A stretch of 64,000 nt of DNA, taken from NCBI GenBank assembly GCA_965228475.1, contig OZ245817.1, forward strand, positions 1,376,001 to 1,440,000, given 5' to 3'. This DNA is from Myxococcota bacterium. Its GTDB lineage: Bacteria; Myxococcota_A; UBA9160; JAFDDA01. Under the pieces are notes generated by a model. It made no database searches. It worked only from the letters and a program-made list of their open reading frames with translations, and was not told the DNA's origin. How positions within the stretch are numbered: the first letter of the stretch is position 1; every line of letters begins with the position of its first letter. Shown one piece after another: positions 1 through 23,870 of this stretch. Position numbers and translations under genes: made by a program.

Positions 1-1440
1 TCGTCGGGCAATCGAGAGGCTCTCCCGGTAGTGCCTAGTCGCGCCTCTCAAGTTGTTCCTTTCCAGCTCGGCGTCGCCGAGGTTGCTGTGAGAGACCGAG
101 AGATCCCTTTGGGCCTGGGTGTTGCTAGGGTCGTTCGTTGCGATTCGTTCTCGAATCGCGAGGGCCTTCCGATAGTGCTCAACCGCGCTTTCGGTGTTTC
201 CCATTCCGAGTCGGACGCTGCCAAGCTTCTCGTGTGAAATCGAGACGCCCCTTTGGGCCTGGGTGTTGCTAGGGTCGCTCGTTGCGATCTGTTTTCTAAT
301 CGCGAGACTCTTCCGATAGTGCTCAACGGCGCTCGCGGTGTTTCCCATTCTGTCTTGAACGTTGCCGAGTCTGTCGTGTGAAATCGAGAGGTCTCTTCGG
401 GCCTGAGCGTTCTCGGGATCGTTCGTTGCGACTCGTTCTCGAATGGCGAGGCTCTCTCGGTAATGCTCAACGGCGCTTTCGGTTTCTCCGGTTCTAGACA
501 GCATGTCGCCGAGTCTGACGTGGGGAATTGAGAGGTCTCTTTGGGCCTGGTTGTTCTCGGGGTCGTCTGCTGCGATTCGTTCTCGGATTGCGAGGCTTTC
601 CCGATAGTGTTCGATGGCGCTCGCGGTGTTGCCGGTTCTGAGTTGGGCGTCCCCGAGTCTGTCGTGGGAGACTGAGAGGTCTCTCCGGGCCTGCGCGTTG
701 TCGGGGGCGTTTGTCGCGATTCGTTGAGCGATCGTGAAGCTCTCCCGGTACTGTTCAATGGCGCTCTCGGTGCTTCCGATTCTGAGTTGGACGTCTCCGA
801 TTCTGTGGTGGGCGACCGCAAGGTCTCTTTGAGCGTGGATGTTGTCGGGGTCGTTTGCTGCGATTTGTTCCCGGATTTCGAGGCTTTGCCGATAGTGTTC
901 GATCGCACTTTCGGTGTTCCCGGTTCTGAGTTGAGCGTCGCCGAGGTTGATGCGGGCGACCGCGAGATCTCTTTGGGCGCGGGCGTCGTCGGAGTCGGCC
1001 GTTGCGATTCGTTGGGCAATCGCGAGGTCCTCTCGGTAGTGGGCCATAGCGCCTTCGGTGTCTCCAACTCTCGTCAGGGCGCCACCGAGGTTTGCGTGCG
1101 AGATCGAGAGGTCCCTTAGGGCCTGGGCATTGCCGGGGTCGTTCGTTGCGATTCGTTGGGCGATAGCGAGGCCCTTCCGGTAGTGCTCGATAGCGCGCTC
1201 GGTGTTTCCGATTCTGAAGTGGGCGTCGCCGAGTTTTGAGTGCGAAATCGAGAGATCTCTTCGGGCCTGAGTGCTGTTGGGCTCTTCGGTTGCAATTCGT
1301 TGGGAGATCGCAAAGCCTGCCCGATAGTGTTCGATAGCGCTTTCAGTGCTTCCGTTCCTGAGTTGGGCGTCGGCGAGTTTGTTGTGGGAGAGCGAGAGGT
1401 CTCGTTGGGCTTGGGTGTCGTCGGGGTCGTTCCTCGCTAG
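1..1440 (-). repeat. ~10 tandem degenerate 144-bp coding repeats (48-aa TPR-like units)
   Basis: A ttgggcctg-like motif recurs at about 108, 252, 396, 540, 684, 828, 972, 1116, 1260 and 1404 (period 144). Consensus is approximately DPxNxQAQRDLSISHxxLGDxxLRxGNTESAIEHYRxxLAIRERIATN. Confidence 0.9.
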
Positions 1441-2619
1441 GAGGTTGAAGCGAGAAAGAGCCTCTTCGAGCAGGGGTACCGCCGCGTTCGGATCGTGGTT
1501 GACCGAGGCCAGTATCACGTCGGCCTTCTGAAGGAGGGCAATCGCGCGAGAGCGCGCCGAGGCCGGCGAATCGGATCCATGGGTTTCCAGGGCGTTGACG
1601 ATTTCATCTACTTCGGCCATGACCGCCTCGCGGGGGCCGATAGGCACATACCGATCCAAGACTTCGGGCAACTCGAAGTTCAGGAAATCGAGGTTGTCGT
1701 TGACTTGGTCTAAGAGAGCGTTCGCCCTGTCTCGTTGGGACTCAGCTAGCTGATACTGCCTCCAGGCAAACGCGCCAGTCACCGTTGCGGTGAGAGCGAG
1801 GATGGTCATGGCGGTACCGATCCGGCGCGCCCGCTGGGTCTTCAAGCGCTGCGCGCGCAACTGATGAGCCTTGTCGCGTTCGGTCAGTCGTTCGAGGCTA
1901 ACGCCAAGAATGCCCGCGATGATCTTCAGGCGAGCCGTGTTGATCTGCTCTTCGTAGGCGACGGTGAGGCGTTCTGCGTCGGAGCGGCTTCGGCCCGATT
2001 GTAGTAGCCGTTGTTTGTAGACGTTGGGGTGGGTGAGCCCCTTGTGGCCGTCCGGGAGACGGAAATTCGCGGCTATGGGTTCTGTGGGTCGATCGATCCG
2101 GAGTTCGCCGTCTTCGCCGACCTCGTACTGGAGCGGTTTGGGGAAGCACTCGAGGGTGCGGACGTCCTCCGGGTCCTCTTCCTTCGCGGGATCGAGGGAT
2201 GCGTTGGGTTCTCCGAGGAGGAGGGCGGCCATGACCCGATCGAACTTCCCGGTGGCTTTGAAGTGACGGATTTCTTCGGCGACGTACTTCGATTGCACGG
2301 CCCGGGGGGAGCAGAGGACGACGAGGAAGCGGGAGCGGTCGAGGGCTTCGGTGATGGCGGAGGAAAGGTCTGCATCCGCCGGTAGCGAGACTTCGTCGCG
2401 GAAGACCGGATAGATCCGGTCGGGGATGATCTCGCCGCGGTTGTTCTTCGTGCCGACGAGCTCGGCGGGAATGTCGTAGATCTCGAGCTGTTGATGGAGC
2501 CAGGTCGCCCACTGTTGGTCTTCTTCGGTGTTGTCGGCGTGCCGGTAGGAGATGAACGCGTAGTAGAAGCCCGATGCTTCACTCGCCTCCGCGGGCTGCG
2601 AAGGGTTTCCGCTACTCAC
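1..2619 (-). CDS. TIR domain - transmembrane helix - 48-aa TPR-like repeat protein (3' end beyond window edge)
   Basis: Not in the ORF track because it has no stop in the window. Manual translation from GTG at 2619-2617 (overlapping the upstream stop) gives MSSGNPSQ...FYYAFISYRHADN...WATWLHQQLEIY...YPVFRDEVSL...LDRSRFLVVLCSPRAVQSKYVAEEIRHF (TIR motifs FISY, VFRD and SxxVxxEI with the catalytic-position Glu). A hydrophobic segment IGTAMTILALTATVTGAFAW and then the repeats follow. The frame is open to position 1. Confidence 0.9.
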   Translation of the reverse strand, partial: MSSGNPSQPAEASEASGFYYAFISYRHADNTEEDQQWATWLHQQLEIYDIPAELVGTKNNRGEIIPDRIYPVFRDEVSLPADADLSSAITEALDRSRFLVVLCSPRAVQSKYVAEEIRHFKATGKFDRVMAALLLGEPNASLDPAKEEDPEDVRTLECFPKPLQYEVGEDGELRIDRPTEPIAANFRLPDGHKGLTHPNVYKQRLLQSGRSRSDAERLTVAYEEQINTARLKIIAGILGVSLERLTERDKAHQLRAQRLKTQRARRIGTAMTILALTATVTGAFAWRQYQLAESQRDRANALLDQVNDNLDFLNFELPEVLDRYVPIGPREAVMAEVDEIVNALETHGSDSPASARSRAIALLQKADVILASVNHDPNAAVPLLEEALSRFNLLARNDPDDTQAQRDLSLSHNKLADAQLRNGSTESAIEHYRAGFAISQRIATEEPNSTQARRDLSISHSKLGDAHFRIGNTERAIEHYRKGLAIAQRIATNDPGNAQALRDLSISHANLGGALTRVGDTEGAMAHYREDLAIAQRIATADSDDARAQRDLAVARINLGDAQLRTGNTESAIEHYRQSLEIREQIAANDPDNIHAQRDLAVAHHRIGDVQLRIGSTESAIEQYRESFTIAQRIATNAPDNAQARRDLSVSHDRLGDAQLRTGNTASAIEHYRESLAIRERIAADDPENNQAQRDLSIPHVRLGDMLSRTGETESAVEHYRESLAIRERVATNDPENAQARRDLSISHDRLGNVQDRMGNTASAVEHYRKSLAIRKQIATSDPSNTQAQRGVSISHEKLGSVRLGMGNTESAVEHYRKALAIRERIATNDPSNTQAQRDLSVSHSNLGDAELERNNLRGATRHYRESLSIARR

Positions 2620-4534
2620 GGGCGGCTCGAAGGTGGAAGAGACGTTCCTCGCCGGCATCCTTGGGAAGGGCGTGGACGCCGACGAACTCGAGGACCCATG
2701 GCGGCTCTTCGTTTCGGCCTTCCCGCCGACTCCTGTGGTCACTCTCGGTGAGCAGGTAGGCGAAGTTCTCGGAGGCGTAGATCCGGCCGCGCACGGTGAC
2801 GGGCTCGAGCCGCGCCGCCCAGTTGACGTGGCTGCCGAACCAGTCTTCCTGTTTGGAAACCGGGTCGAACCACTTCCAGACGGGCGCGGCGTGGAGGGCG
2901 ATTCGCATGTGGAGGAGATGGTCGCCGACCTGGACGCCGTCGGCGCCGCCGGTCGCGCGTTGAAGTGCCAGGGCTAGCTGTGCGATCTGCACGACACCAT
3001 CTTCGTCGGCCGAGGCGGAGAAGATTCCGTCTCCGATGGTCTTGATGAAGGCCGGGCGAGGGGAGATTCCGTTGATCTCTTCGGCGATCTTCTCCATGAA
3101 AGCGCCGAACTTGGGCATCTCATGGTCGCCGAGGCGGGAGAAGTGTTCGATGTCCGCGAAGAGCATGGCGCCGAGCACGCGTCCCCCCTTGCCGGGGGCG
3201 TCTTTTTCGGGCGCACGGTCCCTCGAAGCGGGCGGAGCCTTGGCGTTGGGGGCAACGCGCTCGCGGAGTTCCTTGAGGTCGATCACCACGGTGGGCGGTC
3301 CCGATTCGCCCGATCTCAGGAAGTCGGCGGTTCCACCAGCGATCGGCGGCGCATCGGGGTCGGCGACGCCGACCATCGTTGGGCGGGTGTCCGGGTAGCG
3401 GTCCGCGCGTAGCTGCGCTTTCCCGCGCAGGATCTGGTTCGTCACCGCGAACAGGAAGTCGTCGCCGACGAGGTATTCCTCGCGAGTCAGGTACTGGACC
3501 GATTCGGCGTGGCTCATCGCGGCACGGAAGCGGGGGAGCCACTCGTGGGGGACGCTCGTGTCGACGAAGTCCGTGTCGCTGAAGGGAAGGACCAGGTGGA
3601 CTTCGGCGCCGCGACGAAGCATGGCTTCGGCGAAGAGCAGGTCACTGCCACCGGCAGCCGAGCAGTAGCCGACCTTCGCGTTGAGTTCTTCGAGAACGGC
3701 ATCGAGCCGGGTAGCGACCGCCGTTTCGAGTTCGGCGTCCGGTGGGAAGCGCGGCGACTCTCGGCCGGGGAGATCGATCATGTGACCGGAGAAGGCGAGG
3801 ATGCCGGGGGGCGGGAAGAGTCCGATGAGGCGGTCGGGGACGGGGATGCCGTGGTCGCGGAGAAGAGCCAGCTGCTGAAGCATCGACCTGGACTCGGCGG
3901 GTGATACTGTCTTCTCGAAGGTTCTGAGGTACGCGCGAATGGCATCTTCGTGTTGTTCCAAGAGCAGATGCGCTTCACCCGCCGTAGCATCGGCCCAGTC
4001 GTCACGCGGTTGCGACCTGAGGGCCGTCAGCACCGCCTGCGCCAGTCGGCGGGCTTCCGGCCGATCCCCCGCAAGGGTCGACATCGAAGCGGCATTGATC
4101 CCGCAGTACGTGCCGCCAGTTGCCCGGAAGCCCGCGGCGTAGGCAGCCCGGCTCGCCAGCAGTTCGTTCCGGTCGCCACTCGTTCGCCAGACATCCTTGT
4201 GAAGCCGTCCCCGCAGTCCGAGCAGCTCCTCGAGGATGCCGAGTTCCTTTCCCACGAAGCCGGCGCCGGGCAGATCGGCATCGACGTGCGGGTCGGTGTA
4301 GTGCGCGATCCGCTCCAGCGCTTCCTGGGTGGCACCGGCGTTCGCGAGCGCCAGGCCGTGGAGGTGGGCGAGTACGTGGGAGTCGCCGAAGATGTAGAGC
4401 GCACGCCGTGCCAGGTCGATCGCGGCGAAGTGCTGGCCGGCGTCGTGGAGGCGGCGGATCTCCGAGAGCCATTCTCGGGGGCTCCAGCTCCCGGTGGCGG
4501 ACTCTGGTGAGCGGGGGGGCTCGTCACGCTTCAT
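2612..4534 (-). CDS. TPR-S/DUF4071-like helical domain + SLOG domain + class III nucleotidyl (adenylate) cyclase
   Basis: N-terminal GLRGRLHKD...YCGINAA...WADATAGEAHL. Middle FSGHMID...GYCSAAGGSDLLFAE...VLPF (SLOG). C-terminal LFADIEHFS, KTIGDG, RIALH, DWFGSHVNWAARLE (cyclase). SD-like GAGGAA lies upstream of the ATG. Confidence 0.85.
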   Translation of the reverse strand: MKRDEPPRSPESATGSWSPREWLSEIRRLHDAGQHFAAIDLARRALYIFGDSHVLAHLHGLALANAGATQEALERIAHYTDPHVDADLPGAGFVGKELGILEELLGLRGRLHKDVWRTSGDRNELLASRAAYAAGFRATGGTYCGINAASMSTLAGDRPEARRLAQAVLTALRSQPRDDWADATAGEAHLLLEQHEDAIRAYLRTFEKTVSPAESRSMLQQLALLRDHGIPVPDRLIGLFPPPGILAFSGHMIDLPGRESPRFPPDAELETAVATRLDAVLEELNAKVGYCSAAGGSDLLFAEAMLRRGAEVHLVLPFSDTDFVDTSVPHEWLPRFRAAMSHAESVQYLTREEYLVGDDFLFAVTNQILRGKAQLRADRYPDTRPTMVGVADPDAPPIAGGTADFLRSGESGPPTVVIDLKELRERVAPNAKAPPASRDRAPEKDAPGKGGRVLGAMLFADIEHFSRLGDHEMPKFGAFMEKIAEEINGISPRPAFIKTIGDGIFSASADEDGVVQIAQLALALQRATGGADGVQVGDHLLHMRIALHAAPVWKWFDPVSKQEDWFGSHVNWAARLEPVTVRGRIYASENFAYLLTESDHRSRREGRNEEPPWVLEFVGVHALPKDAGEERLFHLRAARE

Positions 4535-4597
4535 CGCACCGTTCCTCGCGCGGTTGCGCGACCACTATACAAGGAGCGGAGTCGCTGCGGGGCGCTC

Positions 4598-7264
4598 TCA
4601 GGCGTCGGCGTCGGCCTCGCGCCCCGGCGGCCAGCGGTCGATCAGCGCTGGCAGGACCACCAGGTTCGAGACCAGCATGCAGAGCATGCCGATCGTCAGC
4701 ATCTTGCCGAGGCTCGACATGGCGACGTGGCTCGAGAAGGCAAGGGCGCCGAAGCTGACGATGGTGGTGGTGGCGCTGTAGAGGACGGCGCGGGCCGTCG
4801 TGCTCGAGAGCAGCGCGATCTGTTGGCCGGTCTGGCGGCGCAGCGCTCCTCGCTGGACGAGGTGGATCCCGCTGTCGACCCCGGCGCCGAGCAGCAGCGG
4901 GATCACGAGCACGTTGCCGAAGTTGAAGGGGATGTCCGCCGCCGCCATGATCGCCACGGTTCCCCCGGCGCCGAGCAACAGCGGCGCCAGGACGAGGAGC
5001 GGCTCGCGGACGCGTTGCCACAGCAAGACGAGCAGGATGGCGATCGAAACCAGCGCGAGGGTCAGGGCCTGCTCGAAGCTGTCGATGGTCGCGCGCGCGA
5101 ATCCGATCACGTTCGGCGCCATGCCCGTGGCGTCGGGCGCGACCTTCTCGACCTCTTCGACGAAGCGCTCGAGGGCGCCGGGTTCGAAGAGATCTTCGGC
5201 CGGATAGGCGGCGACGCGCACGCGCCCGTCGTTCGCCACCTGACGATCGACGATCTCGGGAGGCAGCCCTTCGAGGGTGATCTCGTCGGGGAGGAGCGCA
5301 TTTCGCAGGCGGTCGAGGTGGCGGGGGAGCGGGCCGAGGGTCAGCTGCTGGAGCTGTTCGAGGGAGCCGCCGAGTTCGCCGCGCTCGCGGGCTTCGGACA
5401 GGAACCCCTCCAGCGTGTCGGCGAGCTCCCGCATCTCTGCCCGGACCGCCGGGTCGCCCGGGCGCGCGGCTTCCGTCCGCAGGGCCTCGACGACGCGGCG
5501 GATGCCGTCTTCCTGCTCCGCGGTGGTGTGGCTCGGCGGCGCCTCTTCGGCGGCGAAGCCCCGGTCGAGCAGGAAGGCCAGATCTTCGAGGATCGCGATC
5601 TTGTCTTCCTGGTCCTCGGGCACGAAGCGGCCGAGGGTGAGGCTGCTGTCGACCACGTCGAGGGACTCGAGTTTCTTCGCCAGGGCCTCGGCTTCCTCCG
5701 CGTTGGCGGCGAGGGCGTCGGCGACGAGGGGGGAGAGCTGGTTCCGCATCTCCATCAGGTCGGTGACGGCCTGGATGGACTCGGCGCTCGGGTCGCGCAG
5801 GCCGAAGACCATCGGGTCGAAGGTCGCGCGCGGGAGCAGGGCGGCGATCGCGACGGCGGCGACCAGTGCGAGGCGCCGGATCCACACGCTCCGCGCCTCG
5901 AGCCAGTGGGACCACCCGACCGGCAGCCCGAGCGGTTCGTCTTCGCTGCCGGCCGGAAGCCGCAGCCCCTTGGTGAGGAGCGCCGGCAGCAGGGTGAGCG
6001 TGAGGAAGAAGATGATGATCATCGCCGTGCCGGCGATCAGGCCGAGCTCCGCGATTCCCGTATAGGGAGCCGGCACGAAGACGAAGAATCCGATCGCCGT
6101 CGTGACCGTGCAGATCAGGAGCGACGGACCGATCTCGCGGGTGGCTTCGGCGAGGCTGTCGGCGTGGCTGAACCCCTGCCGACGCTCCGACGTGTAGGCC
6201 AGGCCGAGGTGGATCCCGAAGTCGATGCCGAGCCCGATGAAGAGGATCCCGAAGGAGAGGGAGGGCAGGGTGAGGTCGCCGACGACGGCGCCCGCCGCGG
6301 CGGCTGCCCAGATGAGGCCGGTCAGGAGCGTCACGGTCGTCGCGGCGAGCATCTGCCAGGAGTGGAAGGCCCGCCAGAGTACGAACATGACCAGGAAGAA
6401 GCAGAAGATGCCGCCGATGAAGACGTCCCAGACGAAGTGGACGAGCTCCTCGAGGTTGATCGCCGCGTTGCCGGTGATGCGGATCGTCGCGCGGCCAGCG
6501 GCCGCCTCGTTGGCCTCGCTGCGGATGGCCGCCATCGCCTCCTGGACTTCGCCGAGCTTCGTGAAGTCGATGACCGGCTCGACGAGGACGAGCGCGCGGT
6601 TGGCGACGGGCCGGTCGAGATCCTGGAGCAGCAGGCTCTCCCACTGGACCTCGCGCGGGTCGCGTTCCGCGTGGATGGCGCGGGTCGTCTGGGAAAGCGC
6701 TTCGAACAGGGAGACCCACGGCGCGTCCGCTTCCTGGGTGCCGAAGAGATCCTGGCCCTGGGCTTCGTCGATCAACGCCGCCATCTGGGCGAAGCTCGGG
6801 TCGCGCTCGAGCTCCGCGATCAGCGGCTGGAGCTGCGTCAGCTGGTCGGCGAACTTCTCGAGCTCCTCGACGCTCAGGTAGAGGAGCCCGTTCTTCTCGA
6901 AGAAGTCGCCGAGCCCCGGTGCGTAGACGTGGCGGTAGCGCTCCGGCTCCGCGGCGAAGCGGTCGCGGATGGCGACCGCGGCGTCGCGCGCGAGCTCCGG
7001 GTTCTCGGCGTCCACGACGACGAGCGTCGTGTGGTCGATGATCGGGAAGAGCTCCGCGAACTCCAGGTAGAGCTGCTGCGATCGGACCTTCGCGCTGACC
7101 TGCTCGACGGTGTCCGCGTTCAATCCCACCGTCGCGACGGCGTAGGCGGCACACGCCACCGTCACGATCGCAGCGGCCCAGAGCACCTGCGAGGCGCGGG
7201 CTTCCACGCGGAGGACCCAGCGCACGAGTTGGCGTCGGAGCACCGGCTCCAGGCGATGGCTCAA
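4598..7264 (-). CDS. MMPL/RND family transporter, HpnN (hopanoid transporter)-like
   Basis: Two MMPL repeats with motifs GLGIDFGIH and GAGVDSGIH; FFEKNGLLYLS; multiple TM helices; TTG start with GAGGAG upstream. Confidence 0.85.
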   Translation of the reverse strand: MSHRLEPVLRRQLVRWVLRVEARASQVLWAAAIVTVACAAYAVATVGLNADTVEQVSAKVRSQQLYLEFAELFPIIDHTTLVVVDAENPELARDAAVAIRDRFAAEPERYRHVYAPGLGDFFEKNGLLYLSVEELEKFADQLTQLQPLIAELERDPSFAQMAALIDEAQGQDLFGTQEADAPWVSLFEALSQTTRAIHAERDPREVQWESLLLQDLDRPVANRALVLVEPVIDFTKLGEVQEAMAAIRSEANEAAAGRATIRITGNAAINLEELVHFVWDVFIGGIFCFFLVMFVLWRAFHSWQMLAATTVTLLTGLIWAAAAAGAVVGDLTLPSLSFGILFIGLGIDFGIHLGLAYTSERRQGFSHADSLAEATREIGPSLLICTVTTAIGFFVFVPAPYTGIAELGLIAGTAMIIIFFLTLTLLPALLTKGLRLPAGSEDEPLGLPVGWSHWLEARSVWIRRLALVAAVAIAALLPRATFDPMVFGLRDPSAESIQAVTDLMEMRNQLSPLVADALAANAEEAEALAKKLESLDVVDSSLTLGRFVPEDQEDKIAILEDLAFLLDRGFAAEEAPPSHTTAEQEDGIRRVVEALRTEAARPGDPAVRAEMRELADTLEGFLSEARERGELGGSLEQLQQLTLGPLPRHLDRLRNALLPDEITLEGLPPEIVDRQVANDGRVRVAAYPAEDLFEPGALERFVEEVEKVAPDATGMAPNVIGFARATIDSFEQALTLALVSIAILLVLLWQRVREPLLVLAPLLLGAGGTVAIMAAADIPFNFGNVLVIPLLLGAGVDSGIHLVQRGALRRQTGQQIALLSSTTARAVLYSATTTIVSFGALAFSSHVAMSSLGKMLTIGMLCMLVSNLVVLPALIDRWPPGREADADA

Positions 7265-18264: not shown

Positions 18265-21200
18265 ATGGTGCGTGCCGTCGCCATGTTGCAGCGCCTGGGG
18301 TTCGATCGGCACGAGAGCCGCGTGCTCGTGTGGGGAGCGATCACGCTCTTCCTCACGGGGTGGGCAGACGTTTCTCTGAAGAACGTCTCGGAAGCCTACT
18401 TCGTGAACAGCGTCGGACCCGAGCGGCTTCCCCTCGTGTTCCTCGCCAGTTCGGCCCTCCTGGTCGGGACGACGTGGGCTCTGGGCATCCTGATGGCTCG
18501 GAGCCAGCGGCTGCGTCTCCTGCCGCGCCTGCTCGGTGTGCTGGCCGTCGCGATCCTTCCCCTGTGGTGGCTGATCCTGAACCACGAGGGTGGAACGGAC
18601 CGCGAGATCAAGAGCGCCTACGGCCTGCTCCTGATCGCCTCGAAGCAGGTCCAGGCGCTGGCGCTCCTGTCGTTCTGGGCCGCCATCAACGATCTGGTGA
18701 ACGCCCGCCAGGCCAAGCGGGTGTTCGCTCCGCTGATGGCCGGCTGGACGCTGGGAACGATCCTCGGAAGCTTCGCATCGGATCCGCTCGCGGGCTGGCT
18801 GGGCGTTCCGGCGCTGGTCCCCGTCTCATCGGCAATGCTGATCCTCGCGGGCGTCGCGACCTATCCGCTCCGCCGCGGGCTGCCTACCCGGCTCCACGTC
18901 GGCACGCGACGACGCCTCCTCGACCTCGTGCGACCCAAGGAAGAGCGCTCGGTGTTCGGCGCGGGCGCGACGGGGTCGCCGGAGGCCGGAAGCGCCGAGG
19001 CCCCGGCGAGCGTGCGCGCGCTCTGGCGGGAGAGTGCCCTGTTCCGGCTGCTCTTCGTCACGGTGCTGCTGTCCGGGATGCTCGGCCCGATGCTCTATTT
19101 CCAGTTCCAGTGGGTCGCGGATGCGGCGACACCGGAAGGCGACGAGGGCCTGGAAGGCCTCCTCCATCTCTACTCGCTCTTCCGCGGCTGGGTGAACGTC
19201 GCCATCCTCGTCGCTCAGCTCACGGTCACCTCGACGCTCTACCGTCGTTTCGGAATCCCGCTGTCCGTCCTGATCTCGCCGCTCACCTATCTCGCCGGCT
19301 TCTTCGGGCTCTCCCGGAGCTTCGCGCTGCCGATGGGCATCGGTGCGATGTCGCTGACGAAGCTCCAGGACAACGCCGTCTTCGATCCGGCCTCCCGGGT
19401 GCTCTACAACCTCTTCCCGGACCGCCACCGGGCCCGTGCCGGGTCCTTCCTCGACGGCCCCGTGAAGCGGGGCGCCGGGGCGCTCGGCAACCTCGTGGTG
19501 ATCGTCGCACTCGAGGCCGCGTCCGTTGCCTACGTCGGCGTGGCCGGCATCGGCCTCGCGCTGATCTGGCTGCTCGCGGCGGTCGTGCTCTGGCAGACCT
19601 ATCCGCGCCTGCTGCTCGCGGCCGCGTCGAACCGCCGGACGTCGGGCGGCGAGTGGGAAGAGGGCATGCTCGACCCCTCGACGGTGCGCGCCCTGAACCC
19701 GCATCTGCTCGACCCCGACCCCGGGCGCTGTGCCCTGGCCATCGGCCTGCTCGAGGAGGCGCGCCCCGAGCTGGCGATCCCCGCGCTCGTGCACGCCTAC
19801 GGAGGGGCCCACGGGGCAACGCGCCCCCTCCTCCTCACGGCGCTCGAGGATGCGCTCGACAAGACGGTCACGACGCCGGTGCGCGACGCCGCGGCGGCCG
19901 CCGAGCTCGACCGGATTCTCGCCGAGACGCCGGATCTCCCGGCCCTCGACCGCTCCCGGCTCGTGCAGTGCTACGGCCGCGTGAGGCCGGAGGACGACCG
20001 CTCGCCGCTGCTCACCCACGCCCTCCACCACGAGGTCGCGAGCGTCCGCCTCGCCGCCGCGGGTGCCCTCGATCACGACGACCTCGACGACCGCCTGCGC
20101 GAGGCCGCGGCCAGCAGCGACCTCGCCGAACGCACCATCGCCCGCCGCGAGCTGCGCGCCGCGCTCCTGTGCGACGCCGAGGATCCGGCCTGGGAACAGC
20201 GGCTCGCGATGCTCGTCGCCATGCTCGACGACCCGGAGGAGCGCCGCCCCGCAGCGGAGGCCCTGGCCGACGTCGCGCGCCGCCACGGCGAGCGCGTCGT
20301 GCCGATCACCGAGGCCGTGCTCGAGCGGCGACACGAGACCGACGTCGCGACGCGCCGCGCGCTGCTGCGCTTCGCCGGCCACGCGGGCTGCGTCGAGCAC
20401 GCGGGCTGGCTGGTCGACCACCTCGCGTCGGACGACGAGTCCGAGGCCGATGCCGCCCGCGAAGGTCTGGTCGCCATGGGGGCCGGCATCACCGACATCC
20501 TGTTGAAGGAGGCGTCCCACGGCCGGCGCAGCAAGCGCGATGCGATCCTGCCGCTCCTGCGCGACCTCCACGTCGACCAGGACGAACTCTGGGAACTCTA
20601 CGAGCGCGAGCTCGCCGGCATCCGCAAGCTCATCGTCCAGCACCACGTGATGCGCGCGACGCCGGGCCTCGAGCTGCTCGAGCAGCGGCTCGACGAGCGC
20701 ATCGACGAAGGCCTGCACACGGCGCTCCTGCTGCTCGCCGGCCTGCGGGACCGGGACGAGTACGAGAGCCTCGCCGAGAGCCTCCCCGGCACGCCGAGCG
20801 GCCGGCGCCGGGCGACCCTGGTCGAGGTGCTCGAGGAGATCGCGACCGCCCGCGAAAAGACCGAGCTCCTGCCGTTGTTGGACGAGGATCTCGACAAGCG
20901 CTGCGCCCGGGCCGCCGGCGCGCTCGGCATCCTCGTCCCGAGCGACGAAGAGGTCCTCCAGCAGACCATGAAGAGCTCCGACGAGCTGACCCGCGTGCTG
21001 GTTGCCGGTTGCCTGCGGACGCTCGGCATGGGGCCCGTGCCCGGTGCGGCGCCCGGCGCAGTTCCATTGGCTCCCTCCGCCGATCTGGAGGAAACTGCGG
21101 ACGTGCTGAGCCCCACGGAGATCGCGCTGCAGCTCAAGGGTCTGCCCATGTTCGATGGGCTCACGACCCGGCAGCTCATGGACCTCGCCCAGGTGGTGAG

Positions 21201-21534
21201 CGAAGTGACCCATGCGCCCGACGCCACCGTCGTCAGCGAGGGCGGCATGAACGAGAGCATGTTCCTGATCGTGGACGGCAAGGTCGAGGTGCGGAAGCAG
21301 GGCCGGCGGGTCGCCGAGCTCGGCCCGGGCGAGTTCTTCGGGGAGATGTCGGTGCTCGAGCGCGCGCGCCCGAGCGCCGACGTGATCACCACGGAGACGG
21401 CGCGCCTGCTCTGCCTTCAGCGCGCGGATCTCTTCCGCCTGATGGAAGAGTTCCCGACCATCCCGATCATCATGTGCCAGACGCTCTCGCGCCGGATGCG
21501 CGAGCTGCTCGAGACGCGCTCCGAGCCTGCCTAG
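18265..21534 (+). CDS. NTT-like MFS transporter fused to HEAT repeats and a cNMP-binding domain
   Basis: About 12 N-terminal TM helices with RQAKRVFAP. A helical HEAT-like middle region follows, then C-terminal MFLIVDGKVEV...GEFFGEMSVL...RPSADV (cNMP fold). Confidence 0.8.
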   Translation: MVRAVAMLQRLGFDRHESRVLVWGAITLFLTGWADVSLKNVSEAYFVNSVGPERLPLVFLASSALLVGTTWALGILMARSQRLRLLPRLLGVLAVAILPLWWLILNHEGGTDREIKSAYGLLLIASKQVQALALLSFWAAINDLVNARQAKRVFAPLMAGWTLGTILGSFASDPLAGWLGVPALVPVSSAMLILAGVATYPLRRGLPTRLHVGTRRRLLDLVRPKEERSVFGAGATGSPEAGSAEAPASVRALWRESALFRLLFVTVLLSGMLGPMLYFQFQWVADAATPEGDEGLEGLLHLYSLFRGWVNVAILVAQLTVTSTLYRRFGIPLSVLISPLTYLAGFFGLSRSFALPMGIGAMSLTKLQDNAVFDPASRVLYNLFPDRHRARAGSFLDGPVKRGAGALGNLVVIVALEAASVAYVGVAGIGLALIWLLAAVVLWQTYPRLLLAAASNRRTSGGEWEEGMLDPSTVRALNPHLLDPDPGRCALAIGLLEEARPELAIPALVHAYGGAHGATRPLLLTALEDALDKTVTTPVRDAAAAAELDRILAETPDLPALDRSRLVQCYGRVRPEDDRSPLLTHALHHEVASVRLAAAGALDHDDLDDRLREAAASSDLAERTIARRELRAALLCDAEDPAWEQRLAMLVAMLDDPEERRPAAEALADVARRHGERVVPITEAVLERRHETDVATRRALLRFAGHAGCVEHAGWLVDHLASDDESEADAAREGLVAMGAGITDILLKEASHGRRSKRDAILPLLRDLHVDQDELWELYERELAGIRKLIVQHHVMRATPGLELLEQRLDERIDEGLHTALLLLAGLRDRDEYESLAESLPGTPSGRRRATLVEVLEEIATAREKTELLPLLDEDLDKRCARAAGALGILVPSDEEVLQQTMKSSDELTRVLVAGCLRTLGMGPVPGAAPGAVPLAPSADLEETADVLSPTEIALQLKGLPMFDGLTTRQLMDLAQVVSEVTHAPDATVVSEGGMNESMFLIVDGKVEVRKQGRRVAELGPGEFFGEMSVLERARPSADVITTETARLLCLQRADLFRLMEEFPTIPIIMCQTLSRRMRELLETRSEPA

Positions 21535-21569
21535 GGCCCGAAGCGCGTCTCGCAAACCGTGGCCATCGC

Positions 21570-22409
21570 TTAGTTGAGATTGATGACGGTGCCGGAACCG
21601 GTGTTACCACCCGGCGCGGGCGGGTCCGGATCGACGGTCGGGTCCACCGGGTCGAACTCCGGAATGAACGGATCCTCGAGCTCGTCGTCGTCGTACGGCT
21701 CGCCCGGATCGTTCCCCGGGTCGGTCGGATCGTTGCCGGTCGTCGAGGAAGAGTCCCCGCCGCCCGCCACGTCGTCGTCGAGGGGCTGATCGAAGTCGTC
21801 GCCGTTGCCGGCCTGGAAGGGGTCGGCCGGATTCCGGAACGGGTCGCCCGGCGCCTTGTCGCCGTAGGCGACGACGCAGAAGCCCGGGCGCGGCTCGGCG
21901 GTCCCGTACTCGTTCTTGACGACGATGCCGCCCGAGATCAGGCAGGCTTCCCACTCGCCGCTCGTGCTGCCCTTGCGCACCTCGAAGTCCGTGCCCTTCA
22001 CGCCGACGGCGGCGGTCGGGGTGTGCACCTCGATCTTGGTGCTTCCGCCGAAGGCGTCGCCCACGGTCGCGCGCAGGCGGCCCCGCACCTGACGCAGGAT
22101 CGAGACTTCCTTCGTGGCGGCGGCGCCGACGTGGAAGGTCTCGATGCGAAGCTCGGTGTCTTCGTCGATCTGGAGCAGGGTGTCGTCGGTGAGGACGATC
22201 TTGGCGCTCGAGTCGAGGCCCGTGCGGATCCGGTCGCCGATCGCGACGGAGCCGTCGCGCTGGGCGGCGGCGAACACGCCGGTGCCGTTGTCGATCTGGA
22301 CGTCGCCGTTGGCGGCGGCGAGGAAGCCGATGTCCTTCGCCGAGGCCAGGCCCGAGAGGCCGAGGGCCGCGGCGGCGATGAGGCTCGTAGCGAGAGAGTT
22401 GCGACGCAC
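21570..22409 (-). CDS. Secreted FecR-domain protein with acidic Pro-rich tail
   Basis: GTG at 22409 with GGAGGA SD; signal peptide; GDRIRTG, TPTAAVGVKGTDF; D/P-rich C-terminus. Confidence 0.8.
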   Translation of the reverse strand: MRRNSLATSLIAAAALGLSGLASAKDIGFLAAANGDVQIDNGTGVFAAAQRDGSVAIGDRIRTGLDSSAKIVLTDDTLLQIDEDTELRIETFHVGAAATKEVSILRQVRGRLRATVGDAFGGSTKIEVHTPTAAVGVKGTDFEVRKGSTSGEWEACLISGGIVVKNEYGTAEPRPGFCVVAYGDKAPGDPFRNPADPFQAGNGDDFDQPLDDDVAGGGDSSSTTGNDPTDPGNDPGEPYDDDELEDPFIPEFDPVDPTVDPDPPAPGGNTGSGTVINLN

Positions 22410-22574
22410 GATGGTTCCTCCGGTCCGGCCTTCCTGGGCCGGGATGCTCACTCCGGCACGATCCATTGCCGGGTCTGTCGTTCGTGCACGTCCGACGCCG
22501 CGGGGTGTCACGAATTCAGGAAAGGGCCGATCCGTTGGCGTTTCGCCCCGGCAGGCCACCCGCAGCCGGCCTGC

Positions 22575-23870
22575 TCAAACGGCCGAGATCTTAGGGAAAT
22601 TCCGCCCGATGGCGAAGATGAGGCCCATCAGCCGCACCATCTCGGCGTTCAGGATGGGTTTCCCGCTCGTCAGGACCGCGGCGGAGAGGTCCCGCTCGGG
22701 GTCGGCCCAGGAGAAGATGTTCGTGTAGCCGAGGTGGCCGAAGGCGTGGGGCGTGTCCCAGCCGAACAAGGAGACCGGCCACTGCCCGAGCATGAAGCCG
22801 AGGCCGTACCGGATGGGGGCGCCGAGGGTGAGGTCGAGCTCCCAGTAGCTCTGCTCGACCGTCGCGCGGTGCACGGTGCGCGGTTCGAAGATGGACTGGC
22901 CGCGGAACTGCCCTTCGTCGAGCAGGCATTGGTAGAAGGCCGAGAGCTCCTCGGCCGTCGCCACGCCGTTGGCGGCCGGGGCGATGCCAGCGAGGAAGCG
23001 CGGGTCCGAGGCCATGGGGATCACGTCCTCGTAGCCGACGCCGAGCGCGCGGCGCAGGAGCTGGGCCACCGGCGGGCCGGGCGGGAGGCCGGTGACGGCG
23101 TCCTCCGCGAGCTTGGGCGCGTCCTCGGGTGAGCAGCCGTAGTTCAGGAAACGCAGGCCGAGGGGGTCGCCGATCTCCTTGCGCAGCACTTCGCGGATGT
23201 CCTGCCCCGTCGCGCGCCGCACCACCTCTCCGAGAACGAATCCGCCGGTCACGGCGTGGTAGGCGAGGCGCCGCCCGGGCCGCATCAAGAGCGGCATCTC
23301 GGCGATCAGGGCGAGGATCTCCTCGGGCCGTTCGAGCAGCTCGAGATCCATCGCTCCGGGAGGAACGTTGGCGATGCCCGCCCGGTGCGCGAGCACGTGG
23401 GCCAGCGTGATCAGCTCCTTGTCCGGGCGCCGGAACTCCGGGAGGTAGTCGCAGACGCGGTCGTCGATGTGGAGCACGCCCTGGTCGTCGAGCTTGTGCA
23501 GGATCATGGCCGTGATGGCCTTGCTCGCGGAGTAGATGCGGAAGGGCGTGTCGGTCGTGGCCGGGATGCGCTCGGCGTCCGGGGCCGCGTCCGGCGTGCC
23601 TCCGCGCGCGTAGCCGAGGGCGCGGTTCAGGACGATCGCGCCGCGGCGCCGGATGCAGATCTGCACGGCCGGGTAGAGCCCCGTCCGGTAGAGGTCCCGC
23701 GCCGCGTCGAAGACGGACTCGACGGCGTGCTTGCTCGTTCCGCCGTCCGAGGGCGCGGACTCCGGCCCGATGCTCGTGACCGCGTCGAGGTCCGAGGGGA
23801 TGCGACAGAGCCGCTTGAAGGGGCGCGTCGGAAGGGTGGCGGCGCGGAGCGCTGCGTCGGTCCAGTCCAT
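22575..23870 (-). CDS. Class C beta-lactamase-family esterase (LipE-like)
   Basis: IYSASK, LAHRAG, YHA, FGHLG. Confidence 0.85.
   Translation of the reverse strand: MDWTDAALRAATLPTRPFKRLCRIPSDLDAVTSIGPESAPSDGGTSKHAVESVFDAARDLYRTGLYPAVQICIRRRGAIVLNRALGYARGGTPDAAPDAERIPATTDTPFRIYSASKAITAMILHKLDDQGVLHIDDRVCDYLPEFRRPDKELITLAHVLAHRAGIANVPPGAMDLELLERPEEILALIAEMPLLMRPGRRLAYHAVTGGFVLGEVVRRATGQDIREVLRKEIGDPLGLRFLNYGCSPEDAPKLAEDAVTGLPPGPPVAQLLRRALGVGYEDVIPMASDPRFLAGIAPAANGVATAEELSAFYQCLLDEGQFRGQSIFEPRTVHRATVEQSYWELDLTLGAPIRYGLGFMLGQWPVSLFGWDTPHAFGHLGYTNIFSWADPERDLSAAVLTSGKPILNAEMVRLMGLIFAIGRNFPKISAV

Follow-up and report, generated by a model that had tools for sequence, protein, structure and literature searches.

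A pair of minus-strand genes lies at the left edge of a 64,000-nucleotide stretch of Myxococcota DNA (here called the window, contig OZ245817.1 positions 1,376,001 to 1,440,000, or G000:C1:1376001-1440000 of a genome that is a single 5.0-Mb contig). The first gene encodes P0001, a protein in which a TPR-S region, a SLOG-type domain and a class III nucleotidyl cyclase are fused, and the second encodes a protein with a TIR domain, a predicted transmembrane (TM) helix and an array of TPR units (TIR-TM-TPR). We propose, with a probability of roughly 0.5, that the two genes form a Thoeris-like TIR-signalling module in which a repeat-gated TIR would act on a reader and the reader on a cyclase, every chemical step of this relay being conditional. 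The features of the pair are listed below with their basis in brackets; residues of the TIR protein are counted from the GTG at 2619, which gives a protein of 948 amino acids.

2612..4534, minus: TPR-S/SLOG/class III cyclase gene, P0001, 640 residues (open reading frame, ORF; Pfam; AlphaFold model)
3824..4507, minus: all-helical TPR-S region, residues ~10-237 (Pfam and helices H10-H237 in the model)
3254..3811, minus: SLOG-superfamily, YpsA-like domain, residues ~242-427, with the GxD motif G296/D298 (predicted fold)
2624..3184, minus: class III nucleotidyl cyclase domain, residues ~451-637 (Pfam, Foldseek, Rv1264 alignment)
2612..2619, minus: 8-nt overlap GTGAGTAG, candidate GTG start over TAG stop (sequence and reading frames)
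1..2619, minus: TIR-TM-TPR gene, 873 of its 948 codons inside the window (ORF; stop 228 nt left of the window)
2125..2565, minus: TIR domain, residues ~19-165, E116 codon at 2272-2274 (Pfam, plant TIR profile alignment)
1834..2124, minus: juxtamembrane region, residues ~166-262, with ECFP and P-x-AA-x-FR (invariant columns, 26 rows)
1762..1821, minus: single predicted membrane helix, residues 267-286 (hydrophobicity, basic N-terminal side)
1..1407, minus: 48-residue TPR-type repeat array, predicted extracytoplasmic (Pfam TPR_12, TPR_10 and others; regular-expression spacing)

The two genes meet in the octamer GTGAGTAG, the reverse complement of window positions 2612-2619, within which the cyclase ORF terminates in TAG (2614-2612) and the TIR frame is opened by GTG (2619-2617). 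The TIR frame stays open back to another GTG at 2742, with an ATG some 13 codons before the GTG at 2619, and no clear Shine-Dalgarno sequence precedes any of these candidate starts. All of them fall on or within the 3' end of the cyclase gene, which leaves no spacer between the two genes, and from this overlap we propose that the two genes would form a co-transcribed two-gene operon. The first-pass annotation of this DNA had read the overlap as a sign of translational coupling: the overlap itself stands and coupling is likely from the arrangement of the frames, with the precise start of the TIR gene uncertain.

The model of the whole 640-residue cyclase protein, built on a 30-row alignment, has a predicted local distance difference test score (pLDDT) of 87.5 and a predicted template modelling score (pTM) of 0.89. 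Its N-terminal part matches the Pfam family TPR-S (PF20308) over residues 37-151 with an E-value of 5.3e-13 (49.9 bits against a cut-off of 27.6), MAP3K_TRAF_bd/DUF4071 being a weaker Pfam match in the same region. The middle domain was folded separately, because Foldseek with the whole model gave cyclases only, and on its own it reaches a pLDDT of 92.8 (42-row alignment). Foldseek with this smaller model places YpsA of Bacillus subtilis (2nx2) on top with an E-value of 1.7e-8, followed by DprA, ShosA and LOG, and a comparison by VIA-align against 48,161 chains again favours YpsA (Z 18.6, root-mean-square deviation 3.0, 162 residues aligned) over DprA (Z 12.6), ShosA (11.7), LOG (9.9), TRPM2 (9.3), MCP (9.0) and the SLOG domain of ThsA (7uxs, 7.0), all of which we take to belong to the SLOG superfamily. 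No SLOG, LOG, DprA or DUF1273 family of Pfam matches the middle domain at E<=1, nor does any in NCBIfam. At the level of its predicted fold this alpha/beta domain is a Rossmannoid SLOG, YpsA-like rather than ThsA-like. The residues G250, H251, G296, D298, E303, P317, W332 and R335 are each conserved in 123-144 of the 147 family rows, with G296 of the GxD motif in 137 and D298 in 134. In YpsA, the GxD/E motif is described as the predicted nucleotide-binding site in the accessible text of PMC6459960, and G296-x-D298 would correspond to it by its position after strand 2 rather than by residue superposition.

The C-terminal domain matches Guanylate_cyc (PF00211) over residues 456-606 with 38.2 bits against a cut-off of 21.9, and Foldseek pairs it with structures of soluble guanylate cyclase and bacterial adenylate cyclases (E 1.6e-9). 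Six catalytic residues are present, D461 (in FADI), K498 and D502 (in KTIGDG), D564 (in EDWFG) and N571 and R575 (in VNWAAR), and their motifs align with FAD, FIKTIGD and DWFGSxVNxAxR of the Rv1264 adenylyl cyclase (1y10). D461 and D502 are presumably the metal-binding aspartates, K498 and D564 the substrate pair and N571 and R575 the transition-state pair. Across the 147 family rows the metal aspartates are kept in 142 and 140 and R575 in 140, and Ser or Thr replaces the Asn of the N...R pair in 51. The substrate pair is Lys/Asp in only 14 rows, the window protein included (codons 3041-3043 for K498 and 2843-2845 for D564), and Asn/Asn in 86. As a Lys/Asp pair is typical of ATP-specific enzymes, the window cyclase probably makes cyclic AMP (cAMP); with Asn/Asn at these positions in most relatives, the product of most family members may not be cAMP, and their pocket appears unusual, unlike the ATP-type pocket predicted for the window member.

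The N-terminal domain of the second protein is assigned by Pfam to TIR_2 over residues 22-135 (E 2.5e-10, 41.3 bits against a cut-off of 28) and also to ThsB_TIR (E 1.2e-7, 32.5 bits against 21.2). A 26-row profile sets its motif SKYVAEEI against SKWCLMEL in L6, a plant TIR, and against SSWCLDEL in AtTIR; E116 is invariant in all 26 family rows. The Glu of the plant WCLxEL motif is the catalytic residue. A trimmed TIR profile was needed to reach the plant TIRs, the full-length family profile having matched only TPR proteins, and a phmmer search with the N-terminal 270 residues returned no match among PDB sequences. The juxtamembrane region with the invariant columns listed above matches no family; it may serve in regulation or in ligand binding.

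The position of the helix is a family trait. Across 121 TIR-TM family proteins, the 19-residue stretch of highest hydrophobicity is found at this site (median position 261, 5th-95th percentile 243-271), with a median Kyte-Doolittle value of 2.24 and a value of at least 1.6 in 120 of the 121, and the 15 residues flanking it contain 5.6 Lys or Arg before the helix as against 2.9 after it. By the positive-inside rule this excess indicates a single pass with the N-terminus in and the C-terminus out, so that the TIR domain would be cytoplasmic and the repeats outside. The repeat array comprises eleven 48-residue units in the full protein, as judged from the regular-expression spacing, ten of which begin in the window and the eleventh beyond it. 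Inside the array, window positions 1-424 repeat at the DNA level at 1009-1432 with 71% identity and an offset of 1008 nt, or seven 48-residue units, which suggests a block duplication of TPR units.

The domain calls of the first-pass annotation hold throughout: Pfam confirms TPR-S, cyclase, TIR and TPR, and the predicted fold bears out the SLOG domain. Its claim that both enzymes keep their catalytic residues is upheld by E116 of the TIR and by the metal, Lys/Asp and N...R residues of the cyclase; its single membrane helix with repeats on the far side agrees with the helix position and the charge bias across the family; and its count of at least 10 repeats is raised to eleven.

Evidence that the two proteins belong together comes from the surroundings of the relatives of the cyclase protein. 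A word-index search brought up 64 relatives of P0001 with 26-43% identity, most of them annotated as TPR-S and/or cyclase and some carrying an N-terminal RyR domain, a caspase or a patatin. In P0052 a caspase-like peptidase stands in place of the cyclase with SLOG and TPR-S retained, and in P0064 a patatin does so with SLOG retained, which puts the cyclase in the output slot of the protein. The reader family is large by the measure of its SLOG profile, which matches 5140 cluster representatives at E<=0.001, with 1311 remaining at E<=1e-30; a scan of 79 of these matches found a cyclase in 65 and TPR-S in 54. For the neighbourhoods, relatives of the cyclase protein were taken from one genome per species, as the best 80 of at least 584 confirmed stretches (at least 600 having been found), and a TIR hidden Markov model (HMM) from 11 seeds was run on every ORF at these loci, with a reach of about 6 kb; a Pfam scan covered the immediate downstream ORF at 72 loci and the immediate upstream ORF at 66.

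The TIR HMM finds 19 TIR ORFs at 17 of the 80 loci, in 7 phyla (L025, L026, L028, L030, L032, L033, L034, L035, L036, L045, L049, L058, L062, L075, L078, L079 and L080), as against 3 ORFs in the whole 5.0-Mb genome of the window, a crude background. The first-pass annotation had named rare adjacency of homologues as the finding that would tell against it, and on the cyclase side the 17 of 80 loci speak against such rarity. Gene order is tight and occurs either way round, with gaps of 16 nt (L030), 18 nt (L049), 7 nt (L025) and 10 nt (L062), and at L079 the TIR gene and the gene of the cyclase relative overlap by 4 nt. Of the 19 TIR partners, 14 contain a strongly hydrophobic 19-mer, and the partner proteins bear Sel1, WD40, ankyrin, FGE-sulfatase, SH3 plus YARHG or CHAT-cyclase-FHA-LysM domains. 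DUF4062-NACHT proteins occur at L029 and L065, and nSTAND1 proteins at L027 and L072. In a quick maximum-likelihood tree of 86 rows, one alphaproteobacterial clade of 43 rows, comprising Magnetospirillum-type and Holosporaceae-type sequences plus a few more, has no TIR nearby; outside this clade a TIR accompanies 17 of 37 loci, in a scattered fashion, and well-supported branches force at least ten changes of state.

Among 40 relatives of the window's genome, a full-length homologue of P0001 is present in one, G031, of the same order, with 36% identity. There (G031:C90, L171 2466-9975) genes for a TIR protein of 492 residues, an nSTAND1-WD40 protein of 1286 residues and a TPR-S/SLOG/cyclase-type protein of 818 residues follow one another on the same strand; this run is a three-gene form of the module.

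Seen from the TIR-TM protein, the linkage is looser. With its residues 1-330, 2531 related proteins were found among 8000 scored candidates, with up to 69% identity, and the family consists of a constant TIR-TM module with varied C-termini of TPR, WD40, ankyrin or FGE type; the module was found at E<=1e-20 in none of 400 other genomes sampled from the phylum. A reciprocal search covered 78 metagenome loci of close TIR-TM relatives, many of them on short contigs. By tblastn, SLOG and cyclase adjoin the TIR-TM gene at four of these only (L105, L106, L124 and L143), SLOG alone is found at L131 and L153, and L163 has a weak match; a Pfam scan of 112 immediate neighbours bears out TPR-S at the same four loci. 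Recurrent neighbours are RyR/TrkA_N, TIR-nSTAND1, trypsin, lipase and HD_4 proteins, with one SLATT protein. So many alternative neighbours are what one would expect of a signal generator serving different receivers, of which the cyclase protein is a minority partner. Co-occurrence of the two genes, the check that the first-pass annotation had proposed, differs between the two sides, with a TIR at 17 of 80 cyclase loci and the cyclase protein at four of 78 TIR-TM loci: the pairing recurs, yet it is facultative.

TrkA_N and/or RyR proteins adjoin TIR-TM-repeat genes at L093, L131, L140, L145 and L147, and RyR is also fused N-terminally to some TPR-S/SLOG/cyclase relatives. Judged from these neighbours and fusions, RyR may be a further part of the signalling network.

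The composition of the pair sets it apart from its surroundings: its TIR gene has a GC content of 59-62% and its cyclase gene one of 64-68%, compared with 68-72% in the flanks and 70.5% genome-wide. This low GC content, together with the patchy distribution, suggests that the pair was acquired as a unit. To its left, beyond the window, lie a convergent gene for a beta-lactamase-fold protein, a radical-SAM fragment and a complete rRNA operon (16S, two tRNAs, 23S and 5S; L003 6009-11546, plus strand, 2.2-7.8 kb left of the end of the TIR gene). The first-pass annotation had looked to this side for effectors, and there is no effector gene among these neighbours. On the right, a gene for an MMPL-family transporter (window 4598-7264, minus) shares the strand of the cyclase gene and stops 63 nt before it (spacer 4535-4597), and from this spacing it is possible that the transporter gene is co-transcribed with the pair; an amidohydrolase gene follows beyond it. 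A scan of L003 13000-19000 found no promoter-like site and 8 terminator-like sites, which is inside the range of shuffled sequences (mean 5.3). At some related loci AbiEii, HigB, transposase, nSTAND1 and NACHT genes are among the neighbours.

The window's genome has 17 matches to class III cyclase domains and 14 to cyclic nucleotide monophosphate (cNMP)-binding domains, so that cAMP from this locus would meet readers. One of the cNMP-binding matches lies in the window at 21208-21450 (plus strand; in ORF 18265-21534 or 18330-23132), about 17 kb from the pair. The genome also encodes two further TIR proteins, one of 919 residues with TIR_2 and an unassigned C-terminus (G000:C1:448753-451527, minus; L168 5750-8509) and one of 416 residues with TIR and YbbR (G000:C1:1949357-1950604, plus; L169 5357-6607), and among the ORFs scanned neither gene has a TPR-S/SLOG neighbour. 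A match to P0001 elsewhere in the genome (C1:386947-387402, E 1.3e-4) was set aside as a LuxR-type response regulator and not a TPR-S protein.

From this material we propose the following relay. The second gene would encode a type-II membrane protein with an enzyme-type TIR domain in the cytoplasm, one helix and an outward array of eleven TPR units as its input. When the array is engaged, the TIR domains would associate and turn NAD+ into a nucleotide signal, such as an isomer of cyclic ADP-ribose (cADPR) or a conjugate of ADP-ribose (ADPR). The soluble cyclase protein would read this signal through TPR-S and/or the YpsA-like SLOG domain, whereupon its C-terminal class III cyclase would be released or dimerised and probably make cAMP, which would either feed the genome's own cNMP receptors or act as the terminal effector by draining ATP or flooding the cell with cAMP. 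The ligand, the direction of signalling, the biological role and each chemical step are all matters of inference. Several observations support the direction of the scheme: in the TIR-TM family it is the C-terminus that varies while the TIR-TM module stays constant, which supports the TIR protein as the input side; the exchange of the cyclase for a caspase-like peptidase or a patatin with SLOG kept places the cyclase at the output; and there are precedents in Thoeris for both SLOG and TPR sensors. The TPR scaffold of the TIR/TPR-S systems is reportedly predicted, in the abstract of Burroughs and Aravind's 2020 paper, to recognise NAD+-derived signals, and in our analysis TPR-S is at least as good a sensor candidate as SLOG. 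As to biological role, defence against phages or other invaders is favoured over general sensing of the envelope.

A number of results weigh against this relay. No TIR lies in the flanks of 63 of the 80 cyclase loci, including the clade of 43 rows with its conserved, housekeeping-like synteny, and the cyclase protein is absent from 74 of the 78 TIR-TM loci, many of which are on short contigs. The window protein itself sits on a long branch (1.65) of the tree, and its placement is unsure. The SLOG pocket is conserved equally in members that have no TIR neighbour, so a cognate TIR need not be the source of its ligand. The helix of the window protein is only borderline hydrophobic, with a Kyte-Doolittle value of 1.59 over residues 267-285. 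At the locus no defence island is recognisable from the neighbours, which are the MMPL transporter, the amidohydrolase, the beta-lactamase-fold protein and the rRNA operon, and no dedicated cNMP-dependent effector adjoins the pair. PADLOC-DB v2 (2023), which is older than Thoeris types V-XI, has no family for the cyclase protein, and to our knowledge no cyclase has been established as an effector of Thoeris.

Alternatively, the TIR could act as an adaptor or scaffold instead of a signal-making enzyme and bind the TPR-S solenoid directly, and clustering of the receptor would bring the cyclase monomers together. TPR solenoids are typical binders of proteins and peptides, class III cyclases are established to need dimerisation, and the tight overlap of the genes suits products that are made together; moreover, formation of the BcTir-BcTpr complex is stated to be a prerequisite for defence in the available text of a related preprint (10.1101/2023.05.26.542521). 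A complex prediction between TPR-S plus SLOG (residues 1-432) and the cytoplasmic part of the TIR protein (residues 1-255) scored 0.25 against a mark of 0.32 and is no evidence either way. We regard such a direct protein relay as unlikely, as the invariance of the catalytic-position Glu and the TIR motifs around it in all 26 rows fits an enzyme better than a pure adaptor, the strongly conserved nucleotide pocket of the SLOG domain would be left without a role, and the TIR module occurs without a nearby TPR-S protein at 74 of 78 loci. The two genes may also be independent or loosely linked neighbours, the cyclase protein answering an endogenous nucleotide within the cell's cAMP network and the TIR protein working alone, by depleting NAD or by signalling. 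The genome's many cyclase and cNMP-binding matches are in keeping with this, as are the TIR-TM loci that mostly lack the cyclase protein and the clade of 43 rows that has kept its synteny without a TIR (the Holosporaceae group, for instance, has a divergent response-regulator/histidine-kinase gene there). Independence is nonetheless improbable in our judgement, given the TIR at 17 of 37 loci outside that alphaproteobacterial clade, in 7 phyla and in both gene orders, often with gaps of 4-18 nt or overlaps, the 8-nt overlap in the window itself, the recurrence of a TIR operon around the only homologue among the relatives (in G031) and the joint departure of both genes from the GC content of the genome.

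The direction of signalling could finally be reversed, in the manner of Pycsar, with the TPR-S/SLOG/cyclase protein as the sensor whose cyclic nucleotide activates the membrane TIR as an NAD-depleting effector. The cyclase gene does come first in the operon, and Pycsar effectors can carry TIR domains or membrane helices. TIRs are also listed in the context of Pycsar in the accessible text of 10.64898/2025.12.03.692087. We hold this direction to be very improbable: Pfam gives no cNMP-binding domain in the TIR protein, the variable C-terminal repeats on a constant TIR-TM module look like an input and not like the accessory of an effector, the relatives in which a caspase or patatin replaces the cyclase put the latter in the output slot, and the Pycsar models of PADLOC find no match.

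Returning to the relay from repeat-gated TIR to reader to cyclase, we speculate tentatively that it works as an outside-in receptor of an inverted Toll-like kind, which we consider possible rather than probable. The repeats would report an event at the surface or in the periplasm, the TPR-S/SLOG reader would convert the NAD-derived messenger to cAMP, and the result would be a cascade of two messengers leading into the general cyclic-nucleotide network rather than to a suicide effector. If this were true, the TIR-TM module with its swappable TPR, WD40, ankyrin and FGE-type ectodomains would represent a large, unrecognised family of transmembrane TIR receptors. The relay as such, if true, would add a second-messenger output in the form of a cyclase to TIR signalling, the known outputs of which are NAD depletion, membrane disruption, proteolysis and nucleotide hydrolysis, and would mean that a membrane receptor bearing repeats on the outside can set off TIR signals. 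The pair can be cloned, and this makes it a concrete case in which to ask whether TPR-S or SLOG is the reader, and of which NAD-derived molecule.

The first-pass annotation had placed the pair in neither canonical Thoeris nor Pycsar, and the search of PADLOC-DB v2 is in agreement with this: alongside the lack of a family for the cyclase protein, the TIR protein is matched by a generic TPR model only and by no Thoeris or Pycsar model. Full-text searches of the accessible literature found no description of a TIR plus SLOG-cyclase pair, which Table S1 of the Thoeris survey may list, and no experimental work on the TPR-S/SLOG reader family. Two Aravind-lab papers (eLife 2020 and 2021) treat cNMP cyclases and TIRs in other conflict systems and, in their accessible parts, not this pair.

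The pair resembles Pycsar in that a nucleotide cyclase is encoded with a TIR/TM protein, and differs from it in that the TIR protein has no cNMP-binding domain by Pfam, no PADLOC match is obtained, and the cyclase carries sensor domains of its own and occupies the slot of the caspase or patatin of its relatives. With type I Thoeris (ThsB and the SIR2-SLOG protein ThsA) it shares, as far as the available descriptions of that system go, the principle that a SLOG domain would read a TIR signal and switch on a fused enzyme. Here, however, the SLOG domain is nearer to YpsA (Z 18.6) than to ThsA (Z 7.0), the output is a cyclase and not SIR2, and the TIR protein is a membrane repeat protein that the Thoeris models of PADLOC do not match. 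Among structures, YpsA of B. subtilis comes closest to the middle domain, with which it shares the GxD/E motif, at a sequence identity of about 19-21%; unlike the fusion found here, YpsA stands alone, and the accessible text of PMC6459960 links it to cell division.

The nearest known systems are the TIR/TPR-S systems of Burroughs and Aravind (2020) and type VIII Thoeris. The latter (the TIR protein ThsB with ThsI) is likewise a two-gene TIR system with a TPR-bearing receiver, and according to the available text of 10.64898/2025.12.03.692087 ThsI responds to canonical cADPR, its TPR being proposed as the sensor. The output of ThsI is a CMP-hydrolase-type domain instead of a cyclase; that text mentions no SLOG domain in ThsI and uses the word cyclase only for ADP-ribosyl cyclase and in a CBASS reference. 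The 78 operons of the Burroughs and Aravind set comprise, as summarised in the accessible part of the BcTir/Tpr preprint (10.1101/2023.05.26.542521), 29 with Tpr alone, 28 Tir-Tpr, 5 YpsA-Tpr and 4 Patatin-Tpr, plus LSDAT and calcineurin forms; the word cyclase is absent from that part of the preprint. The fusion of TPR-S, SLOG and class III cyclase and the TIR-TM-repeat partner set the window's pair apart from these systems as they are summarised in citing preprints, and the original paper or its supplements may list both. What the pair has in common with them, by the same summaries, is TPR-S encoded beside a TIR, a YpsA-type SLOG tied to a TPR core and patatin variants. The first-pass annotation had made the module look more isolated from known systems than it is; its place is rather beside the TIR/TPR-S systems, and its layout, in which a TIR gene adjoins a gene fusing signal-sensing and output domains, is of the Thoeris type.

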